This document shows, one piece after another, positions 39,363-61,518 of a DNA stretch of 64,000 bases. The translations under genes were made by a program, and so were the position numbers. Origin of the DNA: an uncultured Selenomonadales bacterium. GTDB taxonomy: Bacteria > Bacillota > Negativicutes > Selenomonadales > Selenomonadaceae. Numbering within the stretch: position 1 is the first letter of the stretch; every line of letters begins with the position of its first letter. The stretch covers positions 1,242 to 65,241 of the forward strand of contig CAMZHX010000013.1 in NCBI GenBank assembly GCA_947307055.1, written 5' to 3'. Below the pieces are notes generated by a model that had not been told where the DNA came from, did no database searches, and worked only from the letters and a program-made list of their open reading frames with translations.

Positions 39363-42300
39363 ATGACACCGAATGGAGGATGGTATCTCAACGGAACGAC
39401 GTTGGAGTACAGGGCGTATAAGGAGGGTACCACTGAACTCTCAACAACGGCTTTGGTAAAGATTTCGGGACTCTCCACTAGTCAAGTTGTGAATGGCACC
39501 GGAAATGACGCAGGGTATGTTCTTGTTAATGCAAATGGTAATTGGAGAAGACTTAACTCCGATAATAATGATGACATCAAATTCGATGATAAAACCACTG
39601 ACGGCAAGACGACAGGAACAATTACCATTGCTTCGGCTATTCTCCCAAAACAGGCAAACAAGGCAATCACTGTTACAGGTTCGACAAACTACGATTACAC
39701 CATTAAGCTTAACACGAATGACCAAGTCAGACTCTCTGAAACAGACACAGTAACCCACGGCACTAACGGCACAACAACAATCACAGGCAAGCTCACTGCA
39801 GGTTACACGATTGCGACCAACGGCAAAAGTGCTACCTACTACGTGGAAAGAACAAACCAAACATTGGCGAAAATCACTGGCTTGGCGAAGAACTACACCC
39901 AAAGCACCCTCGCTCTTAATGCTGCTTATAAGGAAAACACGGCCGGCGGAGAAGGCGTAATCACTTTGTCGAAACTTGCGGCAGGTTCTATCGACACCAG
40001 CGCGCTCGGTACCACGGCTATTACTCTTACCATGGATAACGTCGCTGTTGCTAATGGTATCAGCTACCAACTGAAATTGAACGAAGGCTCAGGAACTTAC
40101 AAGCAGGTAGCTGCCAATGACGAAGCCGCGTATTGGACTGTAAGCGGCACAAAGGCAACTTATCAGTACTACTCCCCGACAGGCTACGAACTCACCAACG
40201 CCCAAAACGAAGTCATTGCTACTGACGGCAAAGTTTACAAAGCTGACGGCACCGCTTATGAAGATGGTCAAGGCGACAGAGTAGCTACAAAAATCAAAGT
40301 CACGGCAGAAAAAACTACTATAATTGCAACTGTCACCGGTCTTGCAAACGACATCACCACCAACATAACAGATGAGAAAGTTGAGAAAGCGAAAACCACC
40401 CCGACAACTTCCATTGCTGATAAAGTCGGTATCGGTCAAGCGAGATTTGGTGAAGACGGGAAAGACACAGAGGGTAAGCTTATCGCTGAGGCTAGTAATA
40501 TTAATCCTAACCAGTTCGTTTCGGGCATCACCGTTACAACCGATGTCTCAAATGCGAAAACCGGAAATAACAAACCGGTTTATTCAGCTGACGGAAAAAC
40601 TACTATTAAAGGCAACGTCGCAATCAAAATCACGAAAGCTGTACTGCCCACAAGAGGTAATGTTGTCGTCACGCCGGGCAAAGATTTCACCGTCGAAGCT
40701 ACTCTTGGTGATGACTTCTACAACAGCGAAGTTAAAAACCAAAGAATTTGGGTTATCAACGGCAACACCGCAGTCTACAAAGAAGTTGATTTGGCTTACT
40801 ACACCTCGACCACTACTGACGGCAAGACAACAATCAAATGCACAGTCCAGAAAGATGTCGCCACTCTCGCAACTATCAAAGGACTTAATGCAGCTTGGCT
40901 CGCAGACGAATCCCACTTGACGAGAAACACCAAAGACACCAGCGGCGTAATCACCCACATCGACGGCATTAATATCACCACTGCAGCCGGTTACAAATAC
41001 GACGACAAAGGCAAAATGACGGCAAAGTCAGATGAGGTCGGCGAAATCACTCTTGCAAAAGAAGTTCTCGACGGCATGAACGTCACAATCACTAAGAGCG
41101 ATAACTTCAAATTGGCACTTAAAGCTGGCAATATCTCTGCGGTTGATGGCACAAATGATAAAACCACTACCACTACTACCGACGTTGTATTGCCCGCATT
41201 CAACAACTACAAATGGAACCTCTCCGGCACCATCGCCACTTTGAAGGGCGATATTGCTACCGCAGGTTACACGCTCTCCGACGACAGCAAGACAGTCACC
41301 TACACCGCAGCAGCTAAAAACCAAACCCTCGCGACTGTCAACGGTCTCAAGAAGGGCACACAGCTCGAAAGAGAAACTGAAGGAACTACGGAATCGGGCA
41401 ACAAGGACTATCGCAAAATCGGTAACTATGTCGACACTACCTTTACGGACGGTCTCGCGATTGTAACTAATCCTGAGAACGCGGGCGGCAAGTTGACTCA
41501 CAAGACTAAGACGAACGATAAAACCCTCAACAGAATGCCTATCACGATTTCAAGGCTCGTCATGGACACCTCCAAAATCAGTCTCACCAGCAACTTCTTC
41601 ACCCTCGCGCTTAACAAAACTGATAAGAATAATGCTGTTTCCTCAAGAACCTACGTTTTGGAGAAGTCGGATCTCTATAACGGCGATAAGGTAAAGACTG
41701 ACTTAGATAAAACTGTCGGTTGGCATGGTTCGCTCGGCTCCATCGCGATTTTGAAACAAGCTCTGCCGGCTTACTACACCACCGTAGCAGATTCCGCCGG
41801 CACTATCAAGACAATCAACTACACCAAACCCGGTGACGCTAAAACTCTCGCGACCGTCAAAGGTCTCAACAGCGCAATCAACGAAAACGATATTGCCTTC
41901 GACACCACATATAAAAAAATCACGATTAAAAGCGTCGACGCGCTCACAACGGGCAATGTCACAATCACCGGCACGGAAGGCTACACCCTCGCGCTTGATG
42001 TCAATAAGGTTGGTGAGGCTAAGCTCAGCAACGAGACTTGGTCTCAAACCGGCACGACTGTCAACTATACCGCTTTGGTAACTTCGCCCGGCTACAAGCT
42101 CAACGCTGACAAAAACCTCATCACCTACACCAAAGAGGCTACAACTACTCCAACAACTTTGGCGACAATCACCGGTCTTAGAGCAAGTCTCGCGAAAGTC
42201 GACCCAAGCACAACTCAAGATTCTAGCGGCAATAACGGCGGCAATACCGACGGCGGATCTACTGATCCTGGCGATGCGGCTGAAACGAATCAAACAGATC

Positions 42301-45300
42301 AAACTTCTTGGCAATACAAAGGCGTTACCTTCAGCAACGAGACCGGCACTATCACCATAGGGAAGGAAGCCCTCAACGGCTCAAACATCGCAATCAAAGG
42401 CTCCGCTAACTACAAGCTTGCACTCGCCACCGATCTTGATAAGACGACAGCACCCGACCCTGCTAAACGTTGGGTTATCAGCGGGACAACTGCAACTTAC
42501 AAAGTCGTCACCCCTGAGTACTACACCTACAATGCCTCAAACAACACCATCACTTACACCAAAGCTGTAGACGCCGTATATCAAAGCAATCCCGCTCAAA
42601 CCCTCACTTACGCGGCAACAACCGAGACAGACAAGTACACCAACGGAAAAGGCAAGACTATTCCGGCTCTTGTAAGTATCAGCGGTCTCAAGAGCGGGCT
42701 TGTTGTCAATGATAACGGTGACAAAATCGGTTATTACAAAGCAGACGGCTCTTTTGTTGAAAATGCTATCACTTTCGGCACCGGTACCGACGATAAGAAT
42801 ATAACCATTAATAACGCGGGCGTTCTCAATGGAACTACCGTCAAAATCGACAACACCGCCCATACAAATGGTTATAGAATCAAGCTTTCCTCCGACTTAG
42901 TTAATGCCGTGAAACCTAAACTTGAAGGTGATGCGACTTGGACTATCAGCAGAGGTACTGCTACTCTCAAAGGCAATGTCGCAGCCGGTTACTCGGACAG
43001 TTCCGACGGCAAGAGCATTGATTTCAGCGCAAAGAAAACCAACACAGCCATCGCGACAATCACCGGCCTTAAGAACACAGCTACGACAACCGAAGGCTTG
43101 ACGCTCGGCACGACCGAAGGCACCGACGACCATATCATTACGGTTGACAACGACTTACTCAGCACAAGCAATGTCAAACTCACAACTAACATTGCGATTT
43201 TGGGCAAACCTTATCAACTCGCGCTCGACGCTTACGACGCCTCCACCAATCCCACCGGCACCAAGCAGGAAGACGACGTTACATCTACCGAGCAAAACAG
43301 ATGGTCTATCGATAAAACCACTGCCACCTACTACACCTGGAGAGATACTTATTATTCGCTTAACAACGGTCAAGACGGAGCCAGCGACACTATCACTTAC
43401 CACGCGGCTGGCGAAGGTCTCAAAACAGGCGACGACGTACTCGCGACAGTCACCGGTCTTGCAAGCGGTCTCGTCACGATTCAGGACGACCAAATCCGCG
43501 GTATCACCGTCGGCCAAGACGAAACGAAAACTGTGGAGGGAAAAGAGGTAACTACATTCAAGAAAGATGAAGACGGCACAATAATCCAGTTGTCTTCAAA
43601 CGTCCTGCCCACGAAAGTCAAAGACGAAGTTAAAGTTACCTCTGTCGCAAACGGCAAAATTTACAACTTGCGCCTTGACGCGGACGATACTTCTATTCCT
43701 TTGCCTAAAGATGCTGTTTACTATGACATCGCTACTACCGGCGTTGCGACAGTCAAGATTAAAAGAGCTATATCCGCAGGTTTTGATTACGAAAATGCTT
43801 CTAACAAAACTACGATAAAATACAAAGCCGAAGATCTTAGTGTCGGCGGTGTCATTGGAACGATCTCTGGTCTCGACAAAGATAAAACCGTTATAAACTC
43901 TGATGGCAATATTACCGGCATTACCATTAATCAGAATACGACCGGTACTGATGCCAGAACAATCACCCTTTCGCTAGATGTACTCAACGGTCCTGTCACG
44001 TTTACTACCACTAATACAACAAATCCTTATAAATTGAAACTCGGTAATGATGTTACCGGAGCTAGCAGTGCTCCCGCCTTTGAAAAGACTACCACGACTG
44101 GCAAATTTGATCTTCGTGCCGGTGCCACAAACGGCGGCTATACTCTAGGAGAACAAAGCACGACAGATGGCGTAGTCACACAAAAAATCACGTACTTGGA
44201 AGGCGGAAACAAGGGTAACGTAGTAGCGTCAATCACCGGCCTCAAGAATATCGATAAGGATAAGGTTGCTGTCACAGAGGTAAAAGACGGCGACGAAGTC
44301 ACTGGCTACAATATTACAATTTCCTCCGCTGACGCACTCAACGCCCAAGATGTTACAGTAACGCCATCAGATAGCACCAGCACCAAGACTTATACCCTTG
44401 AGCTTAACGGTGTTGCCGCGTCCGAAGCAACTGACACTTGGGATTTAACCAACGGCACCGCAACCTTCACGCACAAGGTTACTGCAGGTTACAAAGTTGA
44501 CAGCGCAACTGGCAAAATCGTCTACACTCCGGAAAGTAGCATCGTTTCCACTCTGAACAACCTCAGCAAAGAAGTCACCTGGACTGTAGAAGACGGCGGC
44601 AAAACGCTTGCTACAGGAGGCACGAAGACCGTAACCGATAATACCGACCCCAACAATCCAACTACAAAAACTGTTAAAACAGGTATTACCTTCGCTGACG
44701 GCGTCTTCACAGTCACGGACGAAAAAGTTCTCGCGCATAAGGCGGTTAAACTCACAACCAAAGCCACCGGCAAAGATTCTTCCGGCAAAAACGTCACCGC
44801 CAACTACACAGTCGACCTTGACAGCGATATTAAAGCTAAAACCGATCCTGCTGTCTGGAACAAAGCGGACAACGCGACTGTCGCAACTTTGACGGAAACA
44901 ACCGCTTCCGGTTATTCAATCTCCGGCGACCAACAGAATATCACTTATTCTTCTGACCCCGTCGTTACAATCCTCGCTACCGTCAACGGCTTGAATAAGG
45001 ATAGCGTCGCGTATACTGAAGGCAACAAATCTTATGTTGGTATCGGCGTCACAAACAGTTCTACTCCCCCCGCAACTACTACTTACACCAAAGGTCTTGA
45101 AGTCACGACAAAGCCTTCGGATTCCACTACCGGCACCATCACGATTGGTCAAAACGTTCTCAACAACGCCAAAGTCACCCTCACCAGCAACAAGTATGTC
45201 TTAGCACTTGACGACACCACCAGCCCTGTTGTGGGTAGTAATGTCGCAGAAAAGAAAGTTTGGGCTATCAGCGGCACCACTGCAACTTATAAGAACGTCA

Positions 45301-48300
45301 AACCTGCTTACTACACCCTCGACGCCAACAGTAAAGGCCTCACCTACACGGCTCAGAAAGACACAAACGTAAGGGAAACCAACTCCCCGAATGTCACTGT
45401 AATCAAAGGCCTCAAGAGCGGTCTCAAGCTCAACGAAGAAGGCAAAGTCATTAACGCCGACGGCACCACTACTGACGGTCTCACTGTTAAAAATAATGGC
45501 GCGGTTTTATTGACTTCAGCTGTTCTCGGCACCAACAAAGAAATTACTTCGGATCAATATACTCTTGAGCTCGCCGAAGGTATTAAAACTGAAAAAGAAG
45601 AGGCTACCGAGTGGGTTGGCAGTGGCACCACTTACACCTTCAAGAAATACGACAAAGCTTATTTCACTTATGAAACTGGCAATAAAAAAATCACCTACAC
45701 CGCGCCGACGGCCGGCACCACCTACGCGACAATCAGCAACCTCAAGAGCGACGCAACTATCAACTTCGCTGCGACCGAGCCCAATAACCTTGCTAAGGGC
45801 GGCACAATCAAGATTTCTGCAGACCAACTCATCGATAAGGACGTTACCCTTAAAGTCAACAGCGGCACCTTTGCCCTTGCATTCGCCGACGACTTTGACG
45901 CTGGTAAGAAATCTTCGATAGGCAGTAGCACCCTGAAGTGGGGCAAGACAAACGCAACAACCGCTGTCCTTCAAGGCACAAAGACTGCAGGTTACACGCT
46001 CAGCGAAGACGCGAAGTCTATAACCTACAAGAAGACAGCCGGAACCGTTACCCTCGCGACAATCAGCGGCCTTAAGAGCGGCTTTGAACTTCCCGCTGAA
46101 ACCACATTCGATACGGATTCCAGCGGCAACCAAATTATCACTTTGGATAAAACTATGCTCGGCACGGCAAATGTCACGCTCAAAGGCGACGGCTATAAAC
46201 TCGCACTTGCCGAAGACGCTGCCTCCGAAACTGATACGGCTACTTGGGTAAAGGCGACCAACGCGACAAAGGCAACCTTCACGCAACAAACCTACAACGG
46301 CTTCACCGAATCGGCCGACGGCAAGTCCCTCACCTACATAAAGAATACAAGCAAAATCGACCTCGCCACTATCAACGGCTTAAGCAAAGACCTCACAACA
46401 GATAACATGAAGGTCGTCTATGCTACTGATAGCCAAACTGCCGAAACGGCTAAAACGGAAGCTACTGCTGCTATTAGTAAGGACGGCACACTCGTTGTTC
46501 TTGATGATGTCAACAAAGTTATCTACCTCAAGCAAGATGCTCTTAGCGGCAAAGTCACCCTCGCAAATAAAGACGGCTACACCTTCGCGCTTGTTGACGA
46601 TAATAACGCTAGCGTCACCGAACTCGGCGGCACTAAAATTACGGATGCCGCCCCGAAAGTCACCTTCAACAACGGCACAATGTCAATCGTAGCCGGCACC
46701 GATGATGAGTGGGTATTGTCCGACGACAAAAAGACCCTCAACTACACCGCGGCAAAATATGATACCCTCGCGACGGTTAGCGGTCTCCCGAAAACCATCA
46801 CCAACACCGCGCATGACGGGATCACTGTCGACGGCACCAAAATTAAAATCGCTAAAGAAGCTCTTGTCAGTACCGATACAACAACCAGCAAAGACACCAG
46901 CCTCCTCGCTAACAACGCCAAAATCGTTCTCACTAACAAAAAGGTTGGCAACACCACTTACGAGTATGCGATTGAACTTGGTACCGGTCTTAACGCGAAA
47001 GCTACGGCTCCTACTGCTGACAAAAAGGTTTGGGCACTCAGCGGCACGAACTTGTCGCTTAAGGAAGTCACCTCGGCTTACTACCTGACCCCAGAAGCTT
47101 CCGGTACTACGCAGACAATTACCTATGTGGCTGAAAAAGTCGGCGACGAAATCGCAAAAATCGCAGGCGTTCCCGCAAATACTGTTTCTCTTAGCTCCGA
47201 CGCTACAGCAGTTTACGTCGGCGGCGACACCTCGAAACCGGCATTTACTGCTACCATGAGTGGTGATGGTGCCATGAACGCTAAGACAATCGAAGTTGGC
47301 TCCGACCTCAGAACAGCTATTAAGACGGCGGATAAAGCTGTAACTCTTTCACTCACTGGAACTGGCTACACCTTCGACATCGGCTTTTTGGATGAAACAA
47401 ATCCTTCTCCTAAACCTACGGATGGCGAGTTCGATTTCATAACAAGCAAATCTTTCACCGCGTTGAAGTCGGCAGGCAAGGCAACAGTAATCAATGAAAA
47501 GAGTTCTGGCTGGACTGAAGCCAGTACTGACAACAAACTTATATTCGCGAAATCAGCCGACAGCATTGTTGCAACAGTCAACGGTCTTAGAAAGGACTTT
47601 GATCCTAGCGGCGCCGCTGAAGATAGTAATGCTGATGACCTCGACTTCAATTCGAGCGATAAATTAAAATCAGTTACAGTGGGCAATACTGCTCTCAACA
47701 AAACGAACGTCACACTCACAATCCCCAGCAAAGGCGAAGTTTACAACCTCGCGCTTGCAAGCAATGTCGCCTCTTCGCTTAGAAGTTTAAGCGACACACC
47801 AGCCGCGAGCGACGTAGCGAATTGGACAGACGACTGGATGAACCAAACTGACTGGGTTGTAAGCGGCGGCACCGCCTCCTACAAAACTTACAACAAAGGC
47901 AACTACTACATCAAGCCCGCAGCAAATGCAAACACCACGCCCAATTCTATCGCCTACAATGCGCCGACAGCCGGCACCACTTATGCGAAAATTTCCGGTC
48001 TGAGCAAAACAGCTGAATCCGTTGCTTCTAGCGTTGATTTAAGTAATTACAGTAGTACAGCAGCTGCTGGCAAAGACATCATCATCACCTTGGGTGCAAA
48101 AGAACTCAGCACTTCCAAAGTCACCCTCGCTGTTTCAAAAGCTAATTCGGTTAAAGCGGCTAACACTAATAACGACACTCTTAAATCTATCTTCGAATCT
48201 ATCGCCTCAGACCTCAACGATAAGATATTAGTCGGCAACAAGGTTGCGCCAAACTTCAAACTTGCGCTCGACACCACTACTGCCGACAGCGTTAAGGCAA

Positions 48301-50063
48301 GCAGCATAGACAACGCGGTTTGGGATAACAACGGCACGGTCGCCAACTTGACGGGCACAATCACCAAAGGTTACAAACTTTCCAACGACCAGAAGTCCAT
48401 AACTTACCAAGCAGCCGACAGCAAACTTCAAGTCATCGCGAAAGTCAGCGGCATCAAGAAGGATTCGCAAATCTCTGACAGCCTCGTTGCAGCTATAACT
48501 GATACAACCGACCCCAACTACAACGCGGCATTGCCGAACCTCCAATACATAACCTTGAATAAGGAACACCTCGGCACCAGCAACGTCATGCTCACCGGCG
48601 AAGGCTATAAGCTCAAACTTGGTACCGATGTTGTTCTCGACACTAACAGTATAAGCGGTGCTGAAAACGGCTGGCACGACCAAACCGAATGGGTTGCCAA
48701 CAACGGCACCTTCACCTACAAGACTTACGACAAAGCAAACTACAAAGTCAACGATACCGGAATGCAAGTCATCTACACTGGGGCTAAAGACGACACGAAG
48801 AATAACGCTAACCACAAGACATTCGTGAAAATTACCGGCTTGTCGAAAACTGCGGAAGCTTCTGATTTAGCGGCAGCAGGTGCTACTGTCGCTAGTACCG
48901 CCGATAATGTAACTACTATAGACGTAACCACAGCAAATGGGGGCGTAATCTCGTTGGGTGCTGATGTTCTCACCACTGGGAACGTTGCACTCACGGACAA
49001 CACGATTTCTGCAAGCTTGAATGGCGCACCCGTCCTCTACAACGGCGGCTACACGCTCGCACTAAAAGACAATGTTGCCAAATCCACCGCAAGCAACGTC
49101 AACGCGACAGTCAGCGGCACGAAAGCAACTTGGGCGGGCACGCAAGGCGCAGGCTATCTCCTCGCCAACGACGAGCAAAATGTTACCTACTACAGCGCGA
49201 AGAAGGATAAGCAAACCATTGCGACGGTCACCGGCCTCAACGCCTCAGTCACTGCAGAAAACAGTAACGACTCGCTCTCAAGTAGCTACAACGAGGGTAC
49301 CAATGTTATGACGCTGACAAAAGACAAACTCAGTAGCAACGTCGGAATCAGCGGAACGGCCGCGTATAACTTCTCCGATTTCGAGAACGGCACAATAACC
49401 GGTAGCGGCTCGGCTGATAAAGTCTCGATTGGCGGCGCAAGCGTCTCGATTAACGCGGGCAACGGCAATGATATCATCAACTTCACCAATTCCTCCAGAA
49501 CAGCCGGCAATACCTTCATCTACGCGAACGGCAACGGCAACGACGTTATCTATGGCTTCACCTCAAAAGACGTTATCAAAGTCACCAATGTTGTCGGCAC
49601 CACTTCCACCACCAATGAAGTAACGGATTCGACTGGAACAAAAACAGAAGTCACGACCTACAAGAACAACATCGAAGTCTATGCTGACACTAAGATTAGC
49701 GGCGATACTCTCGTTAAGGTCAACAACAACGTTATCAGATTGAAGGACTATAAATCTAACGTAACAGTCTACGATAGCAAAGGCAATCATTGGGATGCTA
49801 ACGAAAATAACGGTGGCCAGACAAATAACGGCAGCTTTGTTGCGGATACTACTCCCCAAACCCAAGGCAACGTCTTGGCGGACGATGATTACGCGATGAC
49901 ACCGCAAAACCTCTTCGCTGACGATAACTACGCAATGACGCCGAATCTCAGCTCAATCGTCAAGAGCTCCACTTCCAGCTACATGGCGGACGATTTGGTT
50001 GCAGACGACGCAACGGCTCTCACCAAGCAAAGCACTGCGGTTTCCTACAGCGACAAAAAGTAA
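39363..50063 (+). CDS. giant (3566-aa) Thr-rich modular repeat protein with an RTX-like C-terminal module; probable secreted or surface protein
   Basis: A single uninterrupted ORF. By hand count it has ~24 diverged ~150-aa modules marked by W..SGT.ATYK...YY....ITYT.....TLATV.GL and ...NVTL....YKLAL. The C-terminal region is GSGSADKVSIGGASVSINAGNGNDIINF...FIYANGNGNDVIYGF. No N-terminal signal peptide. Confidence 0.85.
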   Translation: MTPNGGWYLNGTTLEYRAYKEGTTELSTTALVKISGLSTSQVVNGTGNDAGYVLVNANGNWRRLNSDNNDDIKFDDKTTDGKTTGTITIASAILPKQANKAITVTGSTNYDYTIKLNTNDQVRLSETDTVTHGTNGTTTITGKLTAGYTIATNGKSATYYVERTNQTLAKITGLAKNYTQSTLALNAAYKENTAGGEGVITLSKLAAGSIDTSALGTTAITLTMDNVAVANGISYQLKLNEGSGTYKQVAANDEAAYWTVSGTKATYQYYSPTGYELTNAQNEVIATDGKVYKADGTAYEDGQGDRVATKIKVTAEKTTIIATVTGLANDITTNITDEKVEKAKTTPTTSIADKVGIGQARFGEDGKDTEGKLIAEASNINPNQFVSGITVTTDVSNAKTGNNKPVYSADGKTTIKGNVAIKITKAVLPTRGNVVVTPGKDFTVEATLGDDFYNSEVKNQRIWVINGNTAVYKEVDLAYYTSTTTDGKTTIKCTVQKDVATLATIKGLNAAWLADESHLTRNTKDTSGVITHIDGINITTAAGYKYDDKGKMTAKSDEVGEITLAKEVLDGMNVTITKSDNFKLALKAGNISAVDGTNDKTTTTTTDVVLPAFNNYKWNLSGTIATLKGDIATAGYTLSDDSKTVTYTAAAKNQTLATVNGLKKGTQLERETEGTTESGNKDYRKIGNYVDTTFTDGLAIVTNPENAGGKLTHKTKTNDKTLNRMPITISRLVMDTSKISLTSNFFTLALNKTDKNNAVSSRTYVLEKSDLYNGDKVKTDLDKTVGWHGSLGSIAILKQALPAYYTTVADSAGTIKTINYTKPGDAKTLATVKGLNSAINENDIAFDTTYKKITIKSVDALTTGNVTITGTEGYTLALDVNKVGEAKLSNETWSQTGTTVNYTALVTSPGYKLNADKNLITYTKEATTTPTTLATITGLRASLAKVDPSTTQDSSGNNGGNTDGGSTDPGDAAETNQTDQTSWQYKGVTFSNETGTITIGKEALNGSNIAIKGSANYKLALATDLDKTTAPDPAKRWVISGTTATYKVVTPEYYTYNASNNTITYTKAVDAVYQSNPAQTLTYAATTETDKYTNGKGKTIPALVSISGLKSGLVVNDNGDKIGYYKADGSFVENAITFGTGTDDKNITINNAGVLNGTTVKIDNTAHTNGYRIKLSSDLVNAVKPKLEGDATWTISRGTATLKGNVAAGYSDSSDGKSIDFSAKKTNTAIATITGLKNTATTTEGLTLGTTEGTDDHIITVDNDLLSTSNVKLTTNIAILGKPYQLALDAYDASTNPTGTKQEDDVTSTEQNRWSIDKTTATYYTWRDTYYSLNNGQDGASDTITYHAAGEGLKTGDDVLATVTGLASGLVTIQDDQIRGITVGQDETKTVEGKEVTTFKKDEDGTIIQLSSNVLPTKVKDEVKVTSVANGKIYNLRLDADDTSIPLPKDAVYYDIATTGVATVKIKRAISAGFDYENASNKTTIKYKAEDLSVGGVIGTISGLDKDKTVINSDGNITGITINQNTTGTDARTITLSLDVLNGPVTFTTTNTTNPYKLKLGNDVTGASSAPAFEKTTTTGKFDLRAGATNGGYTLGEQSTTDGVVTQKITYLEGGNKGNVVASITGLKNIDKDKVAVTEVKDGDEVTGYNITISSADALNAQDVTVTPSDSTSTKTYTLELNGVAASEATDTWDLTNGTATFTHKVTAGYKVDSATGKIVYTPESSIVSTLNNLSKEVTWTVEDGGKTLATGGTKTVTDNTDPNNPTTKTVKTGITFADGVFTVTDEKVLAHKAVKLTTKATGKDSSGKNVTANYTVDLDSDIKAKTDPAVWNKADNATVATLTETTASGYSISGDQQNITYSSDPVVTILATVNGLNKDSVAYTEGNKSYVGIGVTNSSTPPATTTYTKGLEVTTKPSDSTTGTITIGQNVLNNAKVTLTSNKYVLALDDTTSPVVGSNVAEKKVWAISGTTATYKNVKPAYYTLDANSKGLTYTAQKDTNVRETNSPNVTVIKGLKSGLKLNEEGKVINADGTTTDGLTVKNNGAVLLTSAVLGTNKEITSDQYTLELAEGIKTEKEEATEWVGSGTTYTFKKYDKAYFTYETGNKKITYTAPTAGTTYATISNLKSDATINFAATEPNNLAKGGTIKISADQLIDKDVTLKVNSGTFALAFADDFDAGKKSSIGSSTLKWGKTNATTAVLQGTKTAGYTLSEDAKSITYKKTAGTVTLATISGLKSGFELPAETTFDTDSSGNQIITLDKTMLGTANVTLKGDGYKLALAEDAASETDTATWVKATNATKATFTQQTYNGFTESADGKSLTYIKNTSKIDLATINGLSKDLTTDNMKVVYATDSQTAETAKTEATAAISKDGTLVVLDDVNKVIYLKQDALSGKVTLANKDGYTFALVDDNNASVTELGGTKITDAAPKVTFNNGTMSIVAGTDDEWVLSDDKKTLNYTAAKYDTLATVSGLPKTITNTAHDGITVDGTKIKIAKEALVSTDTTTSKDTSLLANNAKIVLTNKKVGNTTYEYAIELGTGLNAKATAPTADKKVWALSGTNLSLKEVTSAYYLTPEASGTTQTITYVAEKVGDEIAKIAGVPANTVSLSSDATAVYVGGDTSKPAFTATMSGDGAMNAKTIEVGSDLRTAIKTADKAVTLSLTGTGYTFDIGFLDETNPSPKPTDGEFDFITSKSFTALKSAGKATVINEKSSGWTEASTDNKLIFAKSADSIVATVNGLRKDFDPSGAAEDSNADDLDFNSSDKLKSVTVGNTALNKTNVTLTIPSKGEVYNLALASNVASSLRSLSDTPAASDVANWTDDWMNQTDWVVSGGTASYKTYNKGNYYIKPAANANTTPNSIAYNAPTAGTTYAKISGLSKTAESVASSVDLSNYSSTAAAGKDIIITLGAKELSTSKVTLAVSKANSVKAANTNNDTLKSIFESIASDLNDKILVGNKVAPNFKLALDTTTADSVKASSIDNAVWDNNGTVANLTGTITKGYKLSNDQKSITYQAADSKLQVIAKVSGIKKDSQISDSLVAAITDTTDPNYNAALPNLQYITLNKEHLGTSNVMLTGEGYKLKLGTDVVLDTNSISGAENGWHDQTEWVANNGTFTYKTYDKANYKVNDTGMQVIYTGAKDDTKNNANHKTFVKITGLSKTAEASDLAAAGATVASTADNVTTIDVTTANGGVISLGADVLTTGNVALTDNTISASLNGAPVLYNGGYTLALKDNVAKSTASNVNATVSGTKATWAGTQGAGYLLANDEQNVTYYSAKKDKQTIATVTGLNASVTAENSNDSLSSSYNEGTNVMTLTKDKLSSNVGISGTAAYNFSDFENGTITGSGSADKVSIGGASVSINAGNGNDIINFTNSSRTAGNTFIYANGNGNDVIYGFTSKDVIKVTNVVGTTSTTNEVTDSTGTKTEVTTYKNNIEVYADTKISGDTLVKVNNNVIRLKDYKSNVTVYDSKGNHWDANENNGGQTNNGSFVADTTPQTQGNVLADDDYAMTPQNLFADDNYAMTPNLSSIVKSSTSSYMADDLVADDATALTKQSTAVSYSDKK

Positions 50064-55948: not shown

Positions 55949-56551
55949 TTAGGTAAATCTCTTAGCCAATTCTTTCAAGCTCGCGTCCTTAGTGCCGGAG
56001 CCGATTGGATTAAATTTCCAGTCGTCACCGCGCTTGTAGACTTCGCCGGCAATCATCGAGAGCATATCGGTATAATCATCGCTGAGATTGAAACGGCAAA
56101 GTTCTTCGCGGCTGTCGGGGTCGATAATCCTAATAAAGGCGTTCTTAATCATGCCGAAATGCTGATTGCGAGCGACCGCTTGATAAATGTTGACGACGAA
56201 AATTAACTTGTCGTAATGCGGCGGCATTTTGTCGAGGTCAATGAAAATTTGTTCGTCATCGCCTTCGCCCTCGCCAGTGAGGTTATCGCCCATATGTTGA
56301 ACAGCGTCGCTTTTATGGTGGAGGTTCCCGAAATAAATCAGGTCTTCCTTGTCGACGAACTTTCCGTCTTTGCACATGAAAACAGAGGCGTCGCAGTCAA
56401 TACTTTCCTCGTTGCCGAAAAGCCTACTGAAGAAGCCAGTTTTTTTCTTGTTAGCGGCGTCCCAACCGAGACCGACCATAAGGCGCGTAAGTTTTCTGCC
56501 GTCGGATTTTTTGAGCGAAACTTTCTGCCCCTTCTGAAGATTGACAGACAT
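55949..56551 (-). CDS. TerD-family (TerD/YceD) stress protein
   Basis: LQKGQKVSL, GLGWD, DCDASVF and GDNLTGEGEGDDEQI (Ca2+-binding acidic motif), and KFNPIGSG. Confidence 0.93.
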   Translation of the reverse strand: MSVNLQKGQKVSLKKSDGRKLTRLMVGLGWDAANKKKTGFFSRLFGNEESIDCDASVFMCKDGKFVDKEDLIYFGNLHHKSDAVQHMGDNLTGEGEGDDEQIFIDLDKMPPHYDKLIFVVNIYQAVARNQHFGMIKNAFIRIIDPDSREELCRFNLSDDYTDMLSMIAGEVYKRGDDWKFNPIGSGTKDASLKELAKRFT

Positions 56552-56557
56552 TTAAAA

Positions 56558-56642
56558 TTCCCCTTTCAAAGGGAAAAGGGAAAAGGGAAATGGGAAAAGT
56601 CTTTTCCCTAACTTATCCCTTTTCCCTTCTCCCATTTCCCTA
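56558..56642. repeat. heptamer-built palindromic intergenic element, flavour A (GGGAAAW-type)
   Basis: gggaaaa gggaaaa gggaaat gggaaaag-tc-ttttccctaacttatcccttttcccttctcccatttccc, between the two TerD genes. Confidence 0.8.
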
Positions 56643-56646
56643 ACAA

Positions 56647-57225
56647 TCACACATTAACGCCGTAGTTTTTGCCGAGCGAAGCTAAGCCGCCGCTGAAGCC
56701 GGAGCCAATAGCGTTGAACTTCCACTCGCCCTTATTGCGATAAAGTTCGCCGATAACAACCGCGGTCTCGATTGAAAAATCTTCGCCCAAGTCGTAGCGG
56801 ATAAGCTCTTTATTATTCGTGGCGTCCATAACGCGAATGAAAGCGTTCTCGACTTGCCCGAAATTTTGCTTGCGTTCTTCTGCCTCATAAATCGTAACGG
56901 TGAAGTCAATCTTCTCGACTTCGGCGGGAACTTTGGAGAGGTCGATTTTAATTTCTTCGTCGTCGCCTTCGCCGGCACCCGTCAAGTTATCGCCGAGATG
57001 TTCCACCGAGCCGCTCTTATGCTTGAGGTTGCCGTAGAAAACAAAATCGTCATCGCTTGCAACTTTGCCGCTCGCACCGAGCAGGAAAACCGAAGCGTCC
57101 AAGTCGAAATCCTTGCCGCCGTCGTACTTGTTGGTATCCCAGCCGAGTCCGATTAAAATATTCTTCAAACCGGGATTAGTCTTCGTGAGGTCAACCTTTT
57201 GACCCTTCTTCAAACTGATTGCCAT
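56647..57225 (-). CDS. TerD-family (TerD/YceD) stress protein
   Basis: [36 protein letters not shown] and [14 protein letters not shown] lies upstream. Confidence 0.93.
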
Positions 57226-57261
57226 AAAGAAAAACCTCCTAAAAATTTTTAAGGCTCAAAT

Positions 57262-57290
57262 AATTTAACACACTCTGAAAAGAATTTCAA
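57262..57290 (-). promoter_or_regulatory. candidate promoter of the TerD operon
   Basis: Minus strand TTGAAA (57290-57285), 17 nt, TAAATT (57267-57262). It lies back-to-back with the sRNA-1 promoter. Confidence 0.5.
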
Positions 57291-57303
57291 GCAGTAAATC
57301 AAT

Positions 57304-57332
57304 TTGACAAAGCCGCGAGTTTATGATAAATT
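57304..57332 (+). promoter_or_regulatory. promoter of antitoxin-like sRNA 1
   Basis: TTGACA, 17 nt, TAAATT with an extended TG (tgaTAAATT). Confidence 0.6.
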
Positions 57333-57338
57333 TTTCGC

Positions 57339-57441
57339 GTCAAAAGGACAATTTTAATGATAGGCAGTCCGTTTTGGGCTCCTTCCTCGTTAGTAACTAT
57401 AGACTATTGATTCTTGAGCCGATGAGACGGCTTATTTTTTT
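57339..57441 (+). ncRNA. candidate type I antitoxin sRNA 1 (~100 nt)
   Basis: It runs from the predicted TSS to the hairpin AGCCG-augaga-CGGCU plus UAUUUUUUU. The 3' end is complementary to the toxin ORF 3' end. The internal GGGCUCCUUCC is complementary to the toxin Shine-Dalgarno. Confidence 0.55.
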
Positions 57442-57518
57442 CCATTAAGGTACGTCAGCAACGCGAGAACGAACGTCCCGATGTTTGACAAGTGGTCAAG
57501 CCAGTCGAAGAAATCCAT
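57432..57518 (-). CDS. candidate type I toxin, 28-aa hydrophobic peptide MDFFDWLDHLSNIGTFVLALLTYLNGKK (copy 1)
   Basis: ATG preceded by GGAAGGAGGTGA (6-nt spacing), its own TTGAAA-17-TATATT promoter, a hydrophobic core and a C-terminal KK. It is below the ORF-track size cutoff. Confidence 0.65.
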   Translation of the reverse strand: MDFFDWLDHLSNIGTFVLALLTYLNGKK

Positions 57519-57578
57519 TGCGCGTCACCTCCTTCCCTCGAGGAAGAAAGCCGACACAGCGAACTACCTGCCAAAATG

Positions 57579-57607
57579 AATATATCATACGTTCATAAAT
57601 CTTTCAA
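57579..57607 (-). promoter_or_regulatory. promoter of toxin copy 1
   Basis: Minus strand TTGAAA (57607-57602), 17 nt, TATATT (57584-57579) with an extended TG. The ~54-nt leader folds CUUUCUUCC/GGAAGGAGG over the SD. Confidence 0.6.
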
Positions 57608-57619
57608 CCAGTAAACAAT

Positions 57620-57648
57620 TTGACAAAGCCGCAAGTTTATGATAAATT
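57620..57648 (+). promoter_or_regulatory. promoter of antitoxin-like sRNA 2
   Basis: TTGACA, 17 nt, TAAATT with an extended TG. Confidence 0.6.
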
Positions 57649-57654
57649 TTCTGC

Positions 57655-57762
57655 GATTGAATGAGACAATTTTAATGGCAGGCAGTCCGCTTTGGGCTCC
57701 TTCCCCGTTAATGTAGATTTAGATTAAGGGTTTTTAGAGCCGACGAGACGGCTTATTTTTTT
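57655..57762 (+). ncRNA. candidate type I antitoxin sRNA 2 (~105 nt)
   Basis: Same layout as sRNA 1 (GGGCUCCUUCC box; terminator AGCCG-acgaga-CGGCU-UAUUUUUUU), but the body has diverged from copy 1. Confidence 0.55.
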
Positions 57763-57839
57763 CCATTAAGGTACGTCAGCAACGCGAGAACGAACGTCCC
57801 GATGTTTGACAAGTGGTCAAGCCAGTCGAAGAAATCCAT
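57753..57839 (-). CDS. candidate type I toxin, 28-aa peptide (copy 2, identical)
   Basis: Nucleotide-identical copy of 57432-57518, including the SD and leader. Confidence 0.65.
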   Translation of the reverse strand: MDFFDWLDHLSNIGTFVLALLTYLNGKK

Positions 57840-57899
57840 TGCGCGTCACCTCCTTCCCTCGAGGAAGAAAGCCGACACAGCGAACTACCTGCCAAAATG

Positions 57900-57928
57900 A
57901 ATATATCATACGTTCATAAATCTTTCAA
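57900..57928 (-). promoter_or_regulatory. promoter of toxin copy 2
   Basis: Identical copy of 57579-57607. Confidence 0.6.
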
Positions 57929-57968
57929 CCAGTAAATCAGTTTGAAAGCGAAAAATAGAGAACAAAAA

Positions 57969-58796
57969 TTAATTTTTTTCGACCTCCGTTGGGGAATTGT
58001 CTTCGGGCGGCACCTCGTCGGGCAAATCGTCGTTGGGTATGTCGATAACATCGCTGAACGGGACAATTTTTTCCTCGCCGTGTTCGTTATCGATATAGCG
58101 TAAACCTTCATCTGTTATAACAGCTTGGTCAGCTTGGAGAGCCGTCACTAATGCCGCGCTTTGTTGGTCAATGCTTATTATGCCAAAATTGCTGAGAAGT
58201 TTTTTAAGGACGGTTTTTTTAGCCATAGCGTCAAAATTCGTCGACCAAACTGAACTTTTTTTGCCCGAACGCAAATCATAGGCATAACTCTGCGAATATT
58301 TTTCCGCGTGCGCTTGAAGTTCTTCGACAGTCATATACAAACTTTTTTTGAAACCGTTAATGAGCTCCATGTAAGAAACGTAGCCGACAATGGTATCTGA
58401 AAGTTTTTCGCCGCGAATTATTTCGCCCGTCACAAAGTCGATTTCTTTAATTTGCCCTTCGCAAACCGCGCCCGAATTTAGCGTGCGATATTGACCGGAG
58501 CGCATTGCCAACTGAATGTAGCCGCGATAACCGAGTTGAAACGTTGCGTGATTTTTATAAGGAACGATATGTGCAAGACCTAAGCTGGGGTTTATTGGGA
58601 GTTTAAGCGCGGCAGCGATACCGGCGGCACTCAAAATTGAATTCGGCGAGCAATTTTGCAGTTTCGAGTTACTGCGATAAATTGTGAGTATCGACGAAAT
58701 GAATGATGGCGCGGATTTGTCCAAAAGTTCTTCAAAGCGGCGTTTAATTCCCGATGAAGCCAAAAGTTGTTGGAGCGTTGGGTTTTCCTGCCTCAT
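57969..58796 (-). CDS. recT: RecT-family single-strand annealing recombinase
   Basis: Start at ATG 58796 (AAGGAG 7 nt upstream). Core sequence ([13 protein letters not shown]...GLAHIVPY...[18 protein letters not shown]...W) is typical of RecT. No partner exonuclease gene is adjacent. Confidence 0.88.
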
Positions 58797-58824
58797 AAAG
58801 ATTCTCCTTTCAAATTTTTTAGCC

Positions 58825-58853
58825 ATTGTAGCAAAAAAAAATCTTCGTGGCAA
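58825..58853 (-). promoter_or_regulatory. candidate promoter of recT
   Basis: Minus strand TTGCCA, 17 nt, TACAAT. Confidence 0.5.
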
Positions 58854-58863
58854 TTCTTCAACC

Positions 58864-58892
58864 TTGACGATAAAAAAAACTTGTGATAGACT
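58864..58892 (+). promoter_or_regulatory. candidate promoter of rpsO
   Basis: TTGACG, 17 nt, TAGACT with an extended TG (tgtgaTAGACT). Confidence 0.55.
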
Positions 58893-58980
58893 GCGCGTTA
58901 ATCTTAGCCGCGGCGCAGTTCGTCGATACTCCGACGCGGACTTCGCTAACGGGAAAATTTTTTACGCAGGAGGAATAAAA
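58893..58980 (+). promoter_or_regulatory. structured rpsO 5' leader (possible S15 autoregulatory element)
   Basis: ~88-nt leader with nested helices CCGCG...CGCGG and CGTCG-atactc-CGACG just upstream of the SD. Confidence 0.3.
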
Positions 58981-59247
58981 ATGTTAGACAAACAAGCAAA
59001 ACAGGAGATTATGGAAAAATTCGCCGTGCACGAAGGCGACACCGGTTCACCAGAAGTTCAAATCGCATTGTTGACGGCGCGCATTTCCTACTTGACAGAG
59101 CACCTCAAAGAGCACAAAAAAGATCATCACTCTCGCCGCGGTTTGTTGAAAATGGTTGGTCAACGCCGCCGCCTTTTGAGCTACCTGAGCAAAAAGGACA
59201 TCAATCGTTATCGCGAAATTCTCGCTCAACTTAATCTCCGCAAATAA
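58981..59247 (+). CDS. rpsO: 30S ribosomal protein S15
   Basis: 88-aa ORF: [69 protein letters not shown]. Confidence 0.97.
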
Positions 59248-59268
59248 TTTTCATACTAAATAAAAAAT

Positions 59269-59301
59269 ATCCCCTGTCAAAATTGTGGCAGGGGATTTTT
59301 T
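59269..59301 (+). terminator. intrinsic terminator after rpsO
   Basis: AUCCCCUGUC-8 nt-GGCAGGGGAU (10 bp) followed by TTTTTT. Confidence 0.8.
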
Positions 59302-59358
59302 CGTTATTCAAGAATCAAACAAAGTTCAAAAGATACGCCGATTAAAGGAGAAATCACT

Positions 59359-60417
59359 ATGGCTAAAAACAAAAACCTAAACACCGCTGCACGCGCAAAA
59401 AAAGATGAGTTCTATACCCGAATCGTCGACATCGAAAACGAATTGCGCTACTATCAAAAATTTTTCACGGGCAAAACCGTCCTGTGCAACTGCGACGACC
59501 CTTACGAAAGCGATTTCTTTAAGTACTTCACGATTTATTTCAATCAGCTCGGTCTCAAAAAATTAATCGCAACTTGCTACGTTGGCTCGCCCATTGTACA
59601 GACCGAATTGGACTTTTTCGGCACGCCTAACGAAAATCCCAACTTCGACAAGAAAAAATCCGCTATCAGGTTCGATGTTACCGAAGTGCGCGACTTCAAC
59701 GGCGACGGCGCAATAAATTTGGCGGACGTAAGGTGGCTACTCGAAAATAATCGCAACGTCGTGACCTATCTCGAAGGCGACGGAGATTTTCGCTCGCCCG
59801 AATGTATCGCCGCGCTAAAGGAAGCTGATATTGTCGTCACGAACCCGCCTTTTAGTTTGTTTAGAGAATACGTCGCCCAACTTATTCAATACGACAAAAA
59901 ATTTCTCATCATCGGCAACATGAACGCCATAACTTACAAAGAAATTTTCCCGCTCATTAAAGAGAACAAAATTTGGCTCGGCTACGGCTTTAGAAGTATG
60001 GTCGGCTTCTTCCGCAGTCCTTACGAAGATACAGCGACCGCCTCTCAACACATTGACGGCTTGATTAGAAATTCGGGTGTTCATTGGTTCACGAATTTAG
60101 ATGTTCGCAAGCGGCACGAAGACATTTTGCTGTACATGAAGTATACGCCGGAAAAATATCCGCGCTACGACAACTACGACGCAATAGAAGTTTCAAAGAC
60201 CGCCGAGATTCCCGAAGATTATTTTGGAGTTATGGGCGTGCCGATTACTTTCTTCGATAAATACAATCCAAATCAGTTTGAAATTTTAGGCAATAGTGAG
60301 ATGTTCGCAGAGCCGCTCGTCATTGACGGCAAGTTGAAGAATAAGCCAGGACGATTTTATATTAACGGCAAGCGCATGTACGACAGGATTTTGATTCGTA
60401 GAAAGGCGGCGGAGTAA
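59359..60417 (+). CDS. N6-adenine DNA methyltransferase, EcoRI-methylase-like family
   Basis: N-terminal KKDEFYT motif and catalytic motif IV VVTNPPFS. 352 aa. Confidence 0.85.
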   Translation: MAKNKNLNTAARAKKDEFYTRIVDIENELRYYQKFFTGKTVLCNCDDPYESDFFKYFTIYFNQLGLKKLIATCYVGSPIVQTELDFFGTPNENPNFDKKKSAIRFDVTEVRDFNGDGAINLADVRWLLENNRNVVTYLEGDGDFRSPECIAALKEADIVVTNPPFSLFREYVAQLIQYDKKFLIIGNMNAITYKEIFPLIKENKIWLGYGFRSMVGFFRSPYEDTATASQHIDGLIRNSGVHWFTNLDVRKRHEDILLYMKYTPEKYPRYDNYDAIEVSKTAEIPEDYFGVMGVPITFFDKYNPNQFEILGNSEMFAEPLVIDGKLKNKPGRFYINGKRMYDRILIRRKAAE

Positions 60418-61518
60418 ATGGAAATATTGATGCATGAAATTACGGTGCGCGAGGTTGCGGCGGGCTTTATGGACGATCCGGAGCGCGGTTGCAGAGGTTA
60501 TGGCGGGAAATTGAACATAAGACCAGCTTTTCAGCGCGAATTCGTTTACAACAGCAATCAGCGCGACGAAGTGATTAAAACTGTCCTGCAAGAATTCCCG
60601 TTGAACGTAATGTATTGGGTTCGCAGCGACGACGGGACTTTTGAGATGCTCGACGGGCAACAGCGCACGATAAGCATTTGCCAATACGTTTCAGGCAACT
60701 TTTCGTTAGGCTATCAAAGCTTTGGAAGCTTGACAGATACGGACAGGGAAAAGATTTTGAATTACAAGCTGATGATTTACATCTGCGAGGGCAACGACAA
60801 AGAAAAATTGGATTGGTTTAAGATAATCAACACGGCGGGCGAAAAACTCACAGATCAAGAGGCGCGCAACGCGATATATGCTTGCGAGTGGCTGACCGAC
60901 GCGAAAAAACGTTTCAGCAAGAATAATTGCCCGGCGTACAATCTTTACAAGGACTATTTGAAAGGCTCGCCGATTCGTCAAGATTATTTAGAGGCGGCGT
61001 TGAAGTGGATAGCTAATCGCGACGGATTGGATAAGTTAGAAAGTTATATGGACGCGCAGAAACAAAATCGCACGGCGGACGCTTCGGATTTGTGGGAATA
61101 TATTCAAACGGTGTTTGCCTGGGTGAAAAAAACTTTTCCGCACTACCGCCCGATAATGAAGGGCTTGGATTGGGGAATTCTTTACAACAAATACGGCGAG
61201 AATATGTTGGACGCGGAAAAATTGGAAAAAAAAATTTCGCGACTGATTCTTGACGATGATGTTACGAACAATCGCGGAATTTATGAATATCTTTTGAGCG
61301 GCGAGGAAAAATATTTAAATTTGCGAGCATTTAGCAAGGCAATGAAGTTGGCAGCTTACGAGCGGCAAGCCGGTATTTGTGTGAAGTGCAAAAAACACTT
61401 TGAGCTTGACGAAATGCACGCAGATCATATCACGCCGTGGAGTAAGGGCGGCAAAACGACGGCGGAGAATTGTCAAATGCTGTGTGCGGATTGCAATCGC
61501 CGCAAAAGCGATATTTGA
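60418..61518 (+). CDS. DUF262 (ParB/GmrS-like) domain protein with a C-terminal HNH nuclease
   Basis: IRPAFQREFVY and LDGQQRT (DUF262 signatures). C-terminal CVKC...HADHITPWSKGGKTTAENCQMLCADCNRRKS is an HNH with a zinc ribbon. The ATG directly abuts the methyltransferase TAA. Confidence 0.85.
   Translation: MEILMHEITVREVAAGFMDDPERGCRGYGGKLNIRPAFQREFVYNSNQRDEVIKTVLQEFPLNVMYWVRSDDGTFEMLDGQQRTISICQYVSGNFSLGYQSFGSLTDTDREKILNYKLMIYICEGNDKEKLDWFKIINTAGEKLTDQEARNAIYACEWLTDAKKRFSKNNCPAYNLYKDYLKGSPIRQDYLEAALKWIANRDGLDKLESYMDAQKQNRTADASDLWEYIQTVFAWVKKTFPHYRPIMKGLDWGILYNKYGENMLDAEKLEKKISRLILDDDVTNNRGIYEYLLSGEEKYLNLRAFSKAMKLAAYERQAGICVKCKKHFELDEMHADHITPWSKGGKTTAENCQMLCADCNRRKSDI

Follow-up and report, generated by a model that had tools for sequence, protein, structure and literature searches.

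What occupies the seemingly empty gap between the TerD and RecT genes in a 64,000-nt stretch of chromosomal DNA (contig CAMZHX010000013.1; the whole stretch is called the window below) from an uncultured Selenomonadales bacterium? A preliminary description, made from the letters alone, had read this spacer as two type I toxin-antitoxin-like cassettes in tandem. We found that the gap consists of two tandem copies of a small module, in which a 28-codon open reading frame (ORF) faces an antisense small RNA (sRNA) gene. Judging from sequence comparisons, each 321-bp unit is probably a type I toxin-antitoxin-like module of the chromosome. On this reading the locus, which carries no annotation, is related to the TxpA/BsrE type I systems of Bacillus and belongs to a rumen member of the Selenomonadales; its ORF is shorter than the limits applied by gene callers.

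Two tandem units of 321 bp

Tandem Repeats Finder detects a single tandem array at 57285-57945, with a period of 321, 2.1 copies and 91% matches, in agreement with the repeat originally seen in the TerD-RecT spacer. When the full units are aligned, the exactly identical block is 182 bp long (57424-57605 = 57745-57926) and spans the 3' arm of a terminator, the small ORF, its leader and a minus-strand promoter; the identity reported for this part is real, while its length had been put somewhat too high at ~190 bp. The other ~135 bp of the units, i.e., the sRNA bodies, have diverged by substitutions and indels, as had been described. The sRNA body of unit 1 has closer counterparts in two homologous cassettes (L002 and L007) than in unit 2, which makes the two units paralogues of long standing. 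The toxin halves have since been homogenised, probably by gene conversion.

Homologous cassettes at scattered sites

Statistics drawn from this single window are modest, and the weight of the evidence therefore comes from conservation in relatives. In brief, peptide queries were submitted doubled head to tail, which affects coverage figures but not the matches themselves. A scan of GTDB species representatives yielded four loci, in Selenomonadales bacterium UBA7018, Quinella sp. 2Q5 and Selenomonadaceae RGIG6653 (sheep rumen, two loci, one of which consists of two cassettes in tandem), and a metagenome scan yielded six further loci. An index of 5.8 billion proteins returned 17 proteins, and a full HMMER pass over 1.84 billion representatives returned 27; contigs were fetched for eight of the matched proteins. 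In total, 18 cassettes (about 16 distinct) are represented by DNA, besides an array of at least four cassettes beside bipA (L014, 1100-2472) with three diverged toxins, namely MEILDWVDIVCQVGTLIFAALTYFNGKK, a form of 37 aa that has an insertion at its N-terminus, and MDNYKWIMLILSLIQTVLALLTYLE. The exact window peptide is absent from a collection of 15 billion proteins.

The cassettes lie between genes at unrelated, housekeeping sites: at uvrC/RNase H, at bipA and an EPSP-synthase-family gene, beside hisIE, beside asparagine synthase, and upstream of a radical-SAM-like gene. These sites bear on one alternative, namely that the array serves the TerD operon as a cis-regulatory device (leader peptide, attenuator or promoter array) and not as an autonomous module. 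The array does abut the TerD start, its last partial copy provides the -35 box of the predicted TerD promoter, and no toxin-strand terminator precedes TerD. However, none of the ~20 homologous cassettes adjoins TerD or RecT, all of them being beside unrelated genes, and the cassette has two promoters and a terminator of its own, which leads us to reject this reading as very unlikely. Neither phage and plasmid collections (blastn and tblastn) nor an IMG/VR scan contained a match or relative, and nothing thus points to carriage of the cassette by a phage or plasmid.

The toxin strand encodes a peptide under coding selection

The elements of the minus strand are as follows.

57900..57928, minus strand: toxin promoter of unit 2, TTGAAA-17-TATATT with an extended TG (consensus scan)
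57579..57607, minus strand: toxin promoter of unit 1, identical to that of unit 2 (consensus scan)
57840..57893, minus strand: leader of the unit 2 toxin mRNA, with a predicted transcription start site (TSS) at ~57893 (GGCAGG...)
57519..57572, minus strand: leader of the unit 1 toxin mRNA, with a hairpin sequestering the Shine-Dalgarno (SD) sequence
57753..57839, minus strand: toxin ORF of unit 2, 28 aa, MDFFDWLDHLSNIGTFVLALLTYLNGKK
57432..57518, minus strand: toxin ORF of unit 1, encoding the identical 28-aa peptide

An 87-nt ORF is found twice, where none is expected by chance, and both copies are present where they had been placed at the outset. The preliminary description had proposed conservation of this ORF in related genomes as a check. 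It is indeed conserved: 1) it stays in frame across relatives, with lengths of 26-37 aa, 2) differences among the relatives' ORFs at codon positions 1, 2 and 3 number 117, 59 and 223, respectively, and 3) cassettes L003 and L004a are separated by seven synonymous and no non-synonymous codon changes. The relatives' peptides are 50-90% identical, and the frame and a C-terminal lysine/arginine cluster are kept despite in-frame insertions of two and nine residues. M1, D2, D5, W6, D8, T15, F16, A19 and L21 are invariant, and the C-terminus is basic.

This pattern decides against another alternative, in which the units would be a non-coding repeat or mobile element, similar to a miniature inverted-repeat transposable element (MITE) or a repetitive extragenic palindrome (REP), and the ORF and promoters would be incidental. 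Internal imperfect inverted repeats, tandem copies and many unrelated intergenic sites would all suit such an element, as would a window copy that falls below every protein-family threshold. We nevertheless reject it as extremely improbable on the third-codon-position excess and the synonymous-only L003/L004a pair, to which the retained frame and lysine/arginine cluster and the profile link to Hol_Tox (see below) can be added. Moreover, the inverted repeats lie inside the promoters and not at the unit ends, they are explained by the paralogy of leader and sRNA (see below), and there are only two copies in 64 kb.

Some relatives have lost or altered the ORF while their sRNA remained intact. In L010 (250-336), codon 9 of the toxin is TAA and the -35 box is weakened; in L008 (1306-1392), a 1-nt insertion causes a frameshift that truncates the C-terminus; and in L012 (1501-1629), an extra A in an A-run extends the ORF to 42 aa. 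Damaged toxins beside intact sRNAs, as in L010 and L008, would fit a gene with a costly product. In most of the relatives that had been called as genes, the gene caller chose a start upstream, within the translated leader (e.g., MCRLLPRRKEVTR followed by MDFFDW...), and these false starts show how such genes get mis-annotated.

Within the ORF, the stretch GCGTTGCTGAC (57474-57487, codons A-L-L-T) is near-invariant at synonymous sites too in all relatives. In the predicted fold of a read-through transcript it pairs with GUGACGCG, immediately upstream of the AUG, which suggests constraint at the RNA level within the coding region.

A conserved promoter and an SD-burying leader

The minus-strand promoter has the form originally given, and its TTGAAA-17-TAnnnT layout recurs in 13 of the 14 homologous cassettes with a recognisable toxin-promoter region. 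The ATG lies 60 nt from the -10 box, which gives a predicted leader of ~54 nt. In this leader, CUUUCUUCC (57550-57542 in unit 1, 57871-57863 in unit 2) pairs with the SD GGAAGGAGG (57536-57528 and 57857-57849, respectively) across a 5-nt loop, while the AUG and first codons are taken up by the 5' end of the leader, for a predicted folding energy of -24.7 kcal/mol. The leader is 77% identical across 16 homologues, and the SD lies inside a local hairpin in all 16 distinct leaders that were folded (-19 to -32 kcal/mol), in line with the SD-burying leader first proposed. An extended stem, in which the 5' GGCAGG... arm also covers the AUG and first codons, forms in most of the 16 leaders, though not in all. 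This long stem across the first codons explains the near-invariance of ATGGATTTCTTCGA at the nucleotide level.

The peptide is related to TxpA and BsrE

Hol_Tox (PF16935) is the only Pfam family matched by the peptides; six of seven close relatives match it below threshold, and P0018, the toxin of cassette L016, passes the threshold with 24.5 bits. Conversely, the family profile retrieves P0031 and P0032 from 1.84 billion proteins (E 7.5e-5 and 1.4e-4), both of which are true Hol_Tox proteins, with 44.2 and 40.2 bits. The earlier view that the peptide resembles holin-like toxins in layout only is overturned by these results. The sequences that we take to be those of BsrE, TxpA and BsrG score 47.9, 31.3 and 34.5 bits on Hol_Tox, respectively, all three exceeding its threshold, and hhalign of the family against the presumed BsrE sequence gives a probability of 94.8% over 24 collinear columns, covering residues 3-26 of both. 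The peptide has no match in NCBIfam, and no Fst-family Pfam match was found at E <= 10 for seven family peptides or at E <= 1 for 24 more distant relatives.

As judged by these profile comparisons, the peptide belongs, as a divergent representative, to the TxpA/BsrE superfamily and is a remote homologue of Hol_Tox proteins. Its N-terminal half has turned acidic and amphipathic, leaving a hydrophobic core of 12-15 residues; the Kyte-Doolittle mean of the core IGTFVLALLTYL is 1.96 over 11 residues. Some TxpA-family members are annotated as "holin-like toxin" (Fozo et al. 2010, PMC2887945). A role as a phage holin was rejected, there being no lysis-cassette context.

A predicted antisense sRNA, conserved in relatives, ends on the last toxin codons

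The opposite strand of each unit carries the following elements.

57620..57648, plus strand: sRNA promoter of unit 2, TTGACA-17-TAAATT with a TG in the spacer (consensus scan)
57304..57332, plus strand: sRNA promoter of unit 1, TTGACA-17-TAAATT with a TG in the spacer (consensus scan)
57655..57762, plus strand: sRNA of unit 2, ~108 nt from a predicted TSS, with SD-complementary (anti-SD) motif CUCCUUCCC at 57697-57705 (covariance model R1, 92.9 bits, E 4e-20; nhmmer)
57339..57441, plus strand: sRNA of unit 1, ~103 nt from a predicted TSS, with anti-SD motif CUCCUUCC at 57379-57386 (R1, 95.3 bits, E 1e-20)
57737..57762, plus strand: sRNA terminator of unit 2, GAGCCG-N6-CGGCUU plus U7, hairpin at 57737-57754 (consensus scan)
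57415..57441, plus strand: sRNA terminator of unit 1, hairpin at 57415-57434 plus U7 (consensus scan)

The sRNA promoter was found as described and is conserved; a regex scan recovered TTGACA or TTGAAA, a spacing of exactly 17 nt and TG-n-TAnnAT in 16 of the 18 cassettes, and variation among relatives is limited to weakly constrained -10 positions. The 2-kb region contains nine promoter-like sites in the consensus scan, as opposed to 2.6 ± 1.9 in shuffles. At the other end, the terminator stem is invariant in 17 homologues, and its T-run is the complement of GGA AAA AAA TAA (Gly-Lys-Lys-stop), which bears out the earlier reading of the U-run as the complement of the Lys-Lys-stop codons.

The consensus of 17 sRNA sequences consists of a 5' A/U-rich stretch, a stem-loop, a variable spacer, the invariant GC stem and the U's. 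In the stem-loop, GGCAGG partly masks the CU-rich motif, and the minimum free energy (MFE) fold of the unit 2 sRNA agrees with the consensus. In these 17 sequences, 95.4% of the alignment cells are paired, compared with 31-59% after shifting the partners by 1-3 columns; double-sided changes occur in four pairs, and none of 500 shuffles equals the observed covariation score. R1 places one sRNA beside every toxin copy for which downstream DNA was fetched (E 1e-13 to 1e-24; L011, whose contig ends within the ORF, is outside this tally), so a covariance model of the sRNA across relatives, as had been suggested, does find it there. In the 64-kb window, R1 finds exactly two copies.

One relative departs from the single-sRNA arrangement. 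In L003 (4084-4330), a single toxin gene precedes a tandem pair of sRNA-like modules. The promoter-proximal one has a degenerate anti-SD (CUCUCUCCC) and a weak hairpin of its own; the arrangement may represent an antitoxin made of two modules or what is left of a deleted cassette.

Leader and sRNA are paralogous modules

The body of the sRNA is similar to the toxin leader's 5' arm when both are read in the same orientation, with GGCAGG-hairpin-CUCCUUCC-UCG of the sRNA corresponding to GGCAGGUAGUUCG..GGCUUUCUUCC-UCG of the leader. In the DNA, the likeness takes the form of imperfect inverted repeats, one of 34 nt with 71% and one of 19 nt with 74% complementarity. R1 also scores the toxin leaders of L004 (3930-4019 and 4303-4414) at 31.2 and 27.2 bits (E 1e-4 and 9e-4) and matches those of L011 (1451-1484) and L018 (533-566), on the toxin strand. 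These matches indicate that toxin leader and antitoxin sRNA are paralogous RNA modules.

Seen from the toxin strand, the same likeness means that the 3' untranslated region (UTR) carries a direct repeat of the translation initiation region (TIR). In the window this is CGAGG(G)AAGGAG, a score reached by 3 of 300 shuffles; in L004b it is AGGAAGGAG-nn-GACGCGCA, 19 nt long, a score reached by none of 300. In all five cassettes tested, the predicted MFE fold of a read-through toxin mRNA is closed by a 5'-3' helix of ~35 bp, and in this fold the SD and AUG are paired to conserved ORF sequence.

A more speculative extension, which we regard as possible but doubtful, is that the antitoxin sRNA is an inverted duplicate of the leader's cis anti-SD arm and that the module works as a three-state RNA switch. 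In the first state, the 5' arm would pair with the SD arm and translation would be off; in the second, the 5' arm of a read-through transcript would be captured by the 3' UTR through the ~35-bp closing helix; and in the third, the sRNA would compete for the 3' UTR or for an exposed TIR. If true, this would be a concrete case of a type I antitoxin born from the leader of its own toxin mRNA, and it would place a TxpA-type toxin under par-like logic in a diderm Firmicute lineage.

Pairing between the two RNAs

In the plus-strand RNA, CUCCUUCC and CUCCUUCCC are perfect complements of the SD, as had been pointed out. Among the variants, this anti-SD complementarity tracks changes in the SD, both partners changing with it: L017 has the SD GAGGGGG with CCCCUC in both the cis arm and the sRNA, and cassette 3 of L014 combines the SD GAGAGGGG with the cis arm CUCUCCUCUC and the sRNA motif CUUCUCUC. 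All pairs between the sRNA copy and the SD are Watson-Crick, whereas two of those formed by the cis arm are G-U. In GUCGAC-type relatives the complementarity between sRNA and TIR reaches 18-20 nt; L004b has z = -3.9, and for it RNAcofold predicts that the leader is invaded, with 40 intermolecular pairs and a free-energy difference (ddG) of -4.2.

The secure complementarity, if both RNAs exist, is the cis-antisense overlap at their 3' ends, which would amount to at least ~30 nt since the last ~10 nt of the ORF and the post-stop hairpin both lie within the terminator. The preliminary description had the two RNAs converging and overlapping there; the sRNA side of that claim stands, with the terminator lying over the last toxin codons, while an intrinsic terminator that would end the toxin mRNA was not found.

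These elements suggest the following course of events. On the minus strand, transcription from a sigma-70-type promoter would yield a short mRNA encoding the 28-residue peptide and its hydrophobic core, and this primary transcript would be translationally silent, its first ~54 nt being folded over the SD, AUG and first codons. A convergent promoter on the plus strand would yield a ~100-nt non-coding RNA whose end lies over the final toxin codons. This RNA would be perfectly complementary to the toxin mRNA where their 3' ends meet, over ~30 nt at least, or over its full length should the toxin mRNA read through. The sRNA stem-loop would present a copy of the leader's anti-SD arm, the Watson-Crick complement of the SD. 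The duplex at the 3' overlap could lead to degradation of the toxin mRNA, as is the case for TxpA/RatA and BsrE/SR5, and the CU-rich motif could block the ribosome-binding site wherever the 5' arm of the mRNA is gone or opened, in the manner of Fst/RNAII and SprA1/SprA1AS.

Evidence that weighs against a type I system

Several results count against this interpretation. For the peptide, 1) the window copy scores 15.4 bits on Hol_Tox (E 0.017), below the gathering threshold of 23.3, so the Hol_Tox search that had been suggested as a check succeeds for P0018 and not for the window peptide itself, 2) the hydrophobic core is short, the best Kyte-Doolittle means being 1.66 for a 15-residue and 1.13 for a 19-residue window, and 3) the N-terminal half is acidic. 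For the RNAs, the z-scores of single-sequence folds are modest (leader, -1.5; sRNAs, -2.0 and -1.6), and cmscan of 56000-59500 at E <= 10 gave no Rfam match in 57226-57968. No intrinsic terminator is present on the toxin strand in the window, and in relatives the hairpin common to both genes has no U-run on that strand; read-through into TerD or a downstream gene is therefore possible.

The same holds for the trans pairing within the window. The anti-SD match is only 8-9 nt long, and 3 of 300 shuffles reach its local alignment score. Whole-body RNAduplex gives z = -0.2, a value that is uninformative because long sequences always yield large duplexes. With intact leader and sRNA, RNAcofold predicts no invasion of the SD, the ddG being 0.0 for unit 1 and -1.9 for unit 2, where it comes from pairing elsewhere in the RNA. 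Thus, of the proposed contact between sRNA and SD, the perfect match remains and the opening of the intact window leader does not, and a duplex beyond chance, which had been put forward as a check, is found in L004b and is marginal in the window. Since the intact leader is not invaded, the motif in the window would matter only if the 5' arm of the mRNA is removed or opened. With tisB, zorO and hok, the antitoxin acts on an mRNA in which this has happened. Alternatively, the anti-SD motif of the window would be a relic in this lineage.

The most serious alternative is that each unit is a conserved gene for a small membrane or regulatory peptide whose level is tuned by a cis-antisense regulator, with a non-lethal role such as modulating a membrane protein. 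Conservation of the ORF, promoters and sRNA would also suit a non-toxic product, and the short hydrophobic core and acidic N-terminus point the same way. Even among known relatives, BsrE is toxic only on overexpression, and overproduction of YhzE-2 causes no growth defect (PMC6562991, PMC2887945); given these precedents, "toxin" may overstate the native role of the window peptide. On the other hand, silencing at two levels (a buried SD and AUG as well as an antisense RNA), tandem arrays, scattered sites, and nonsense or frameshift copies of the toxin beside intact sRNAs are type I hallmarks, such loci typically being duplicated in tandem (Fozo et al. 2010, PMC2887945), and the peptide is homologous to the TxpA/BsrG/BsrE toxins. 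We therefore consider a non-lethal peptide gene unlikely and retain the type I reading of the preliminary description, all of whose listed elements are conserved in ~20 homologous cassettes.

Comparison with known systems

The closest known systems are BsrE/SR5, BsrG/SR4 and TxpA/RatA of B. subtilis. As in the window, these combine a short single-helix peptide with the core G-[TS]-F-[IVL]-[IL]-A-L-L-T-Y-[LIF] and a basic C-terminus, a ~100-nt convergent sRNA over the 3' end of the toxin gene, including its last codons, and an SD within a stem of the toxin mRNA (PMC6562991, PMC8594479). The window module differs in four respects: 1) its N-terminus is acidic (MDFFDWLDH) instead of hydrophobic (M-S-T-[YF]-[EQ]-x-L-M), 2) its RNAs have no detectable similarity to RatA, SR4 or SR5, 3) its sRNA has an extra SD-complementary module outside the obligatory overlap, which is not described for that group, and 4) its host belongs to the Selenomonadales, a diderm Firmicute order, and not to the Bacilli.

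Similar organisation is seen in the par system Fst/RNAII of E. faecalis pAD1 and in Lpt of Lactobacillus plasmids, which likewise have convergent RNAs, a shared terminator hairpin right after the stop codon, a 5' stem-loop that sequesters the ribosome-binding site intramolecularly and a direct repeat of the TIR in the antitoxin gene, by which the antitoxin gains complementarity to the TIR beyond the overlap (PMC5608710, PMC8594479). However, the window peptide is not Fst-like, its hairpin has a U-run on the sRNA side only and is not an evident bidirectional terminator, the repeat in the window lineage is 9-12 nt long compared to 24 nt in Lpt, and the locus is chromosomal instead of plasmid-borne. 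With its TIR repeat and a single hairpin between convergent genes, the module would work like par, without this implying membership. In SprA1/SprA1AS of S. aureus, the two RNAs overlap at their 3' ends and the functional contact is proposed at a separate 5' domain with the toxin TIR (PMC8594479), but the peptide family is unrelated.

An inert primary toxin mRNA, which is predicted here, is also a feature of hok/sok, tisB/istR-1 and zorO/orzO. The predicted 5'-3' closure of the read-through form resembles the fold-back element of hok, and the antitoxin would, by the same parallel, act on an opened form of the mRNA. There is no sequence relation to these systems, the window antitoxin lies 3' of the toxin gene and not 5', and processing of the toxin mRNA at its 5' end is something that we infer in the present case.

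The family extends the TxpA/BsrE (Hol_Tox) superfamily from Bacilli to rumen Selenomonadales (Negativicutes). We found no report of a type I system in Negativicutes in the open-access literature, and the group is unmentioned in the main text of the T1TAdb paper. The ~20 natural variants allow the toxin SD, the cis anti-SD arm and the trans anti-SD motif of the sRNA to be compared, the paralogy of leader and sRNA bears on the origin of antitoxin RNAs, and the peptide and leader alignments, together with the sRNA covariance model, can be used for annotating rumen genomes and metatranscriptomes. The general picture of the type I mechanism is unchanged.

Edges and neighbours of the array

Two further features lie at the edges of the array.

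57927..57968, plus strand: right edge of the array, a degenerate partial divergent-promoter segment (AACCAGTAAATCAGTTTGA..AAGCG) that abuts the RecT stop
57262..57290, minus strand: predicted promoter of the TerD operon, with -35 box TTGAAA (57290-57285)

A partial third copy of the repeat is the source of the -35 box of the TerD promoter and of the 16 nt upstream of this box. Downstream of the box, the TerD and toxin promoters are ~50% similar, as counted by eye. It had been conjectured that the cassette seeded the TerD promoter; the shared -35 box agrees with this, while the rest of the promoter lends it little support, and the idea stays a conjecture.

Beyond the array, the minus strand carries two TerD genes, two family-2 glycosyltransferases, a PNP_UDP_1 phosphorylase and a P-type ATPase. 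Upstream of it are RecT, rpsO, an EcoRI-like methyltransferase and a GmrSD_N/HNH protein. In this stretch (57969-61518), RecT stands alone beside rpsO (about 58978-59247, plus strand) and is followed by the EcoRI-like adenine methyltransferase (59359-60417) and the GmrSD_N/HNH protein (60418-61518). The whole, from RecT to HNH, has the look of a small remnant, of a defence or a mobile element, at the side of the array.

Between the two TerD genes (56568-56641), the minus-strand RNA contains heptamer repeats, AAAGGGA in 4.6 copies and CTTTTCC in 4.3, which fold as a ~30-bp purine/pyrimidine hairpin (-45.1 kcal/mol, z = -4.6) with a small terminator-like hairpin on its 3' side. This structure, on which the Rfam scan placed only spurious miRNA matches, is a candidate inter-cistronic terminator, attenuator or processing site. 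Elsewhere in the window, 39363-50063 on the plus strand is a single ORF of 3566 aa with a strong AT skew (+0.22 to +0.26) and a negative GC skew.

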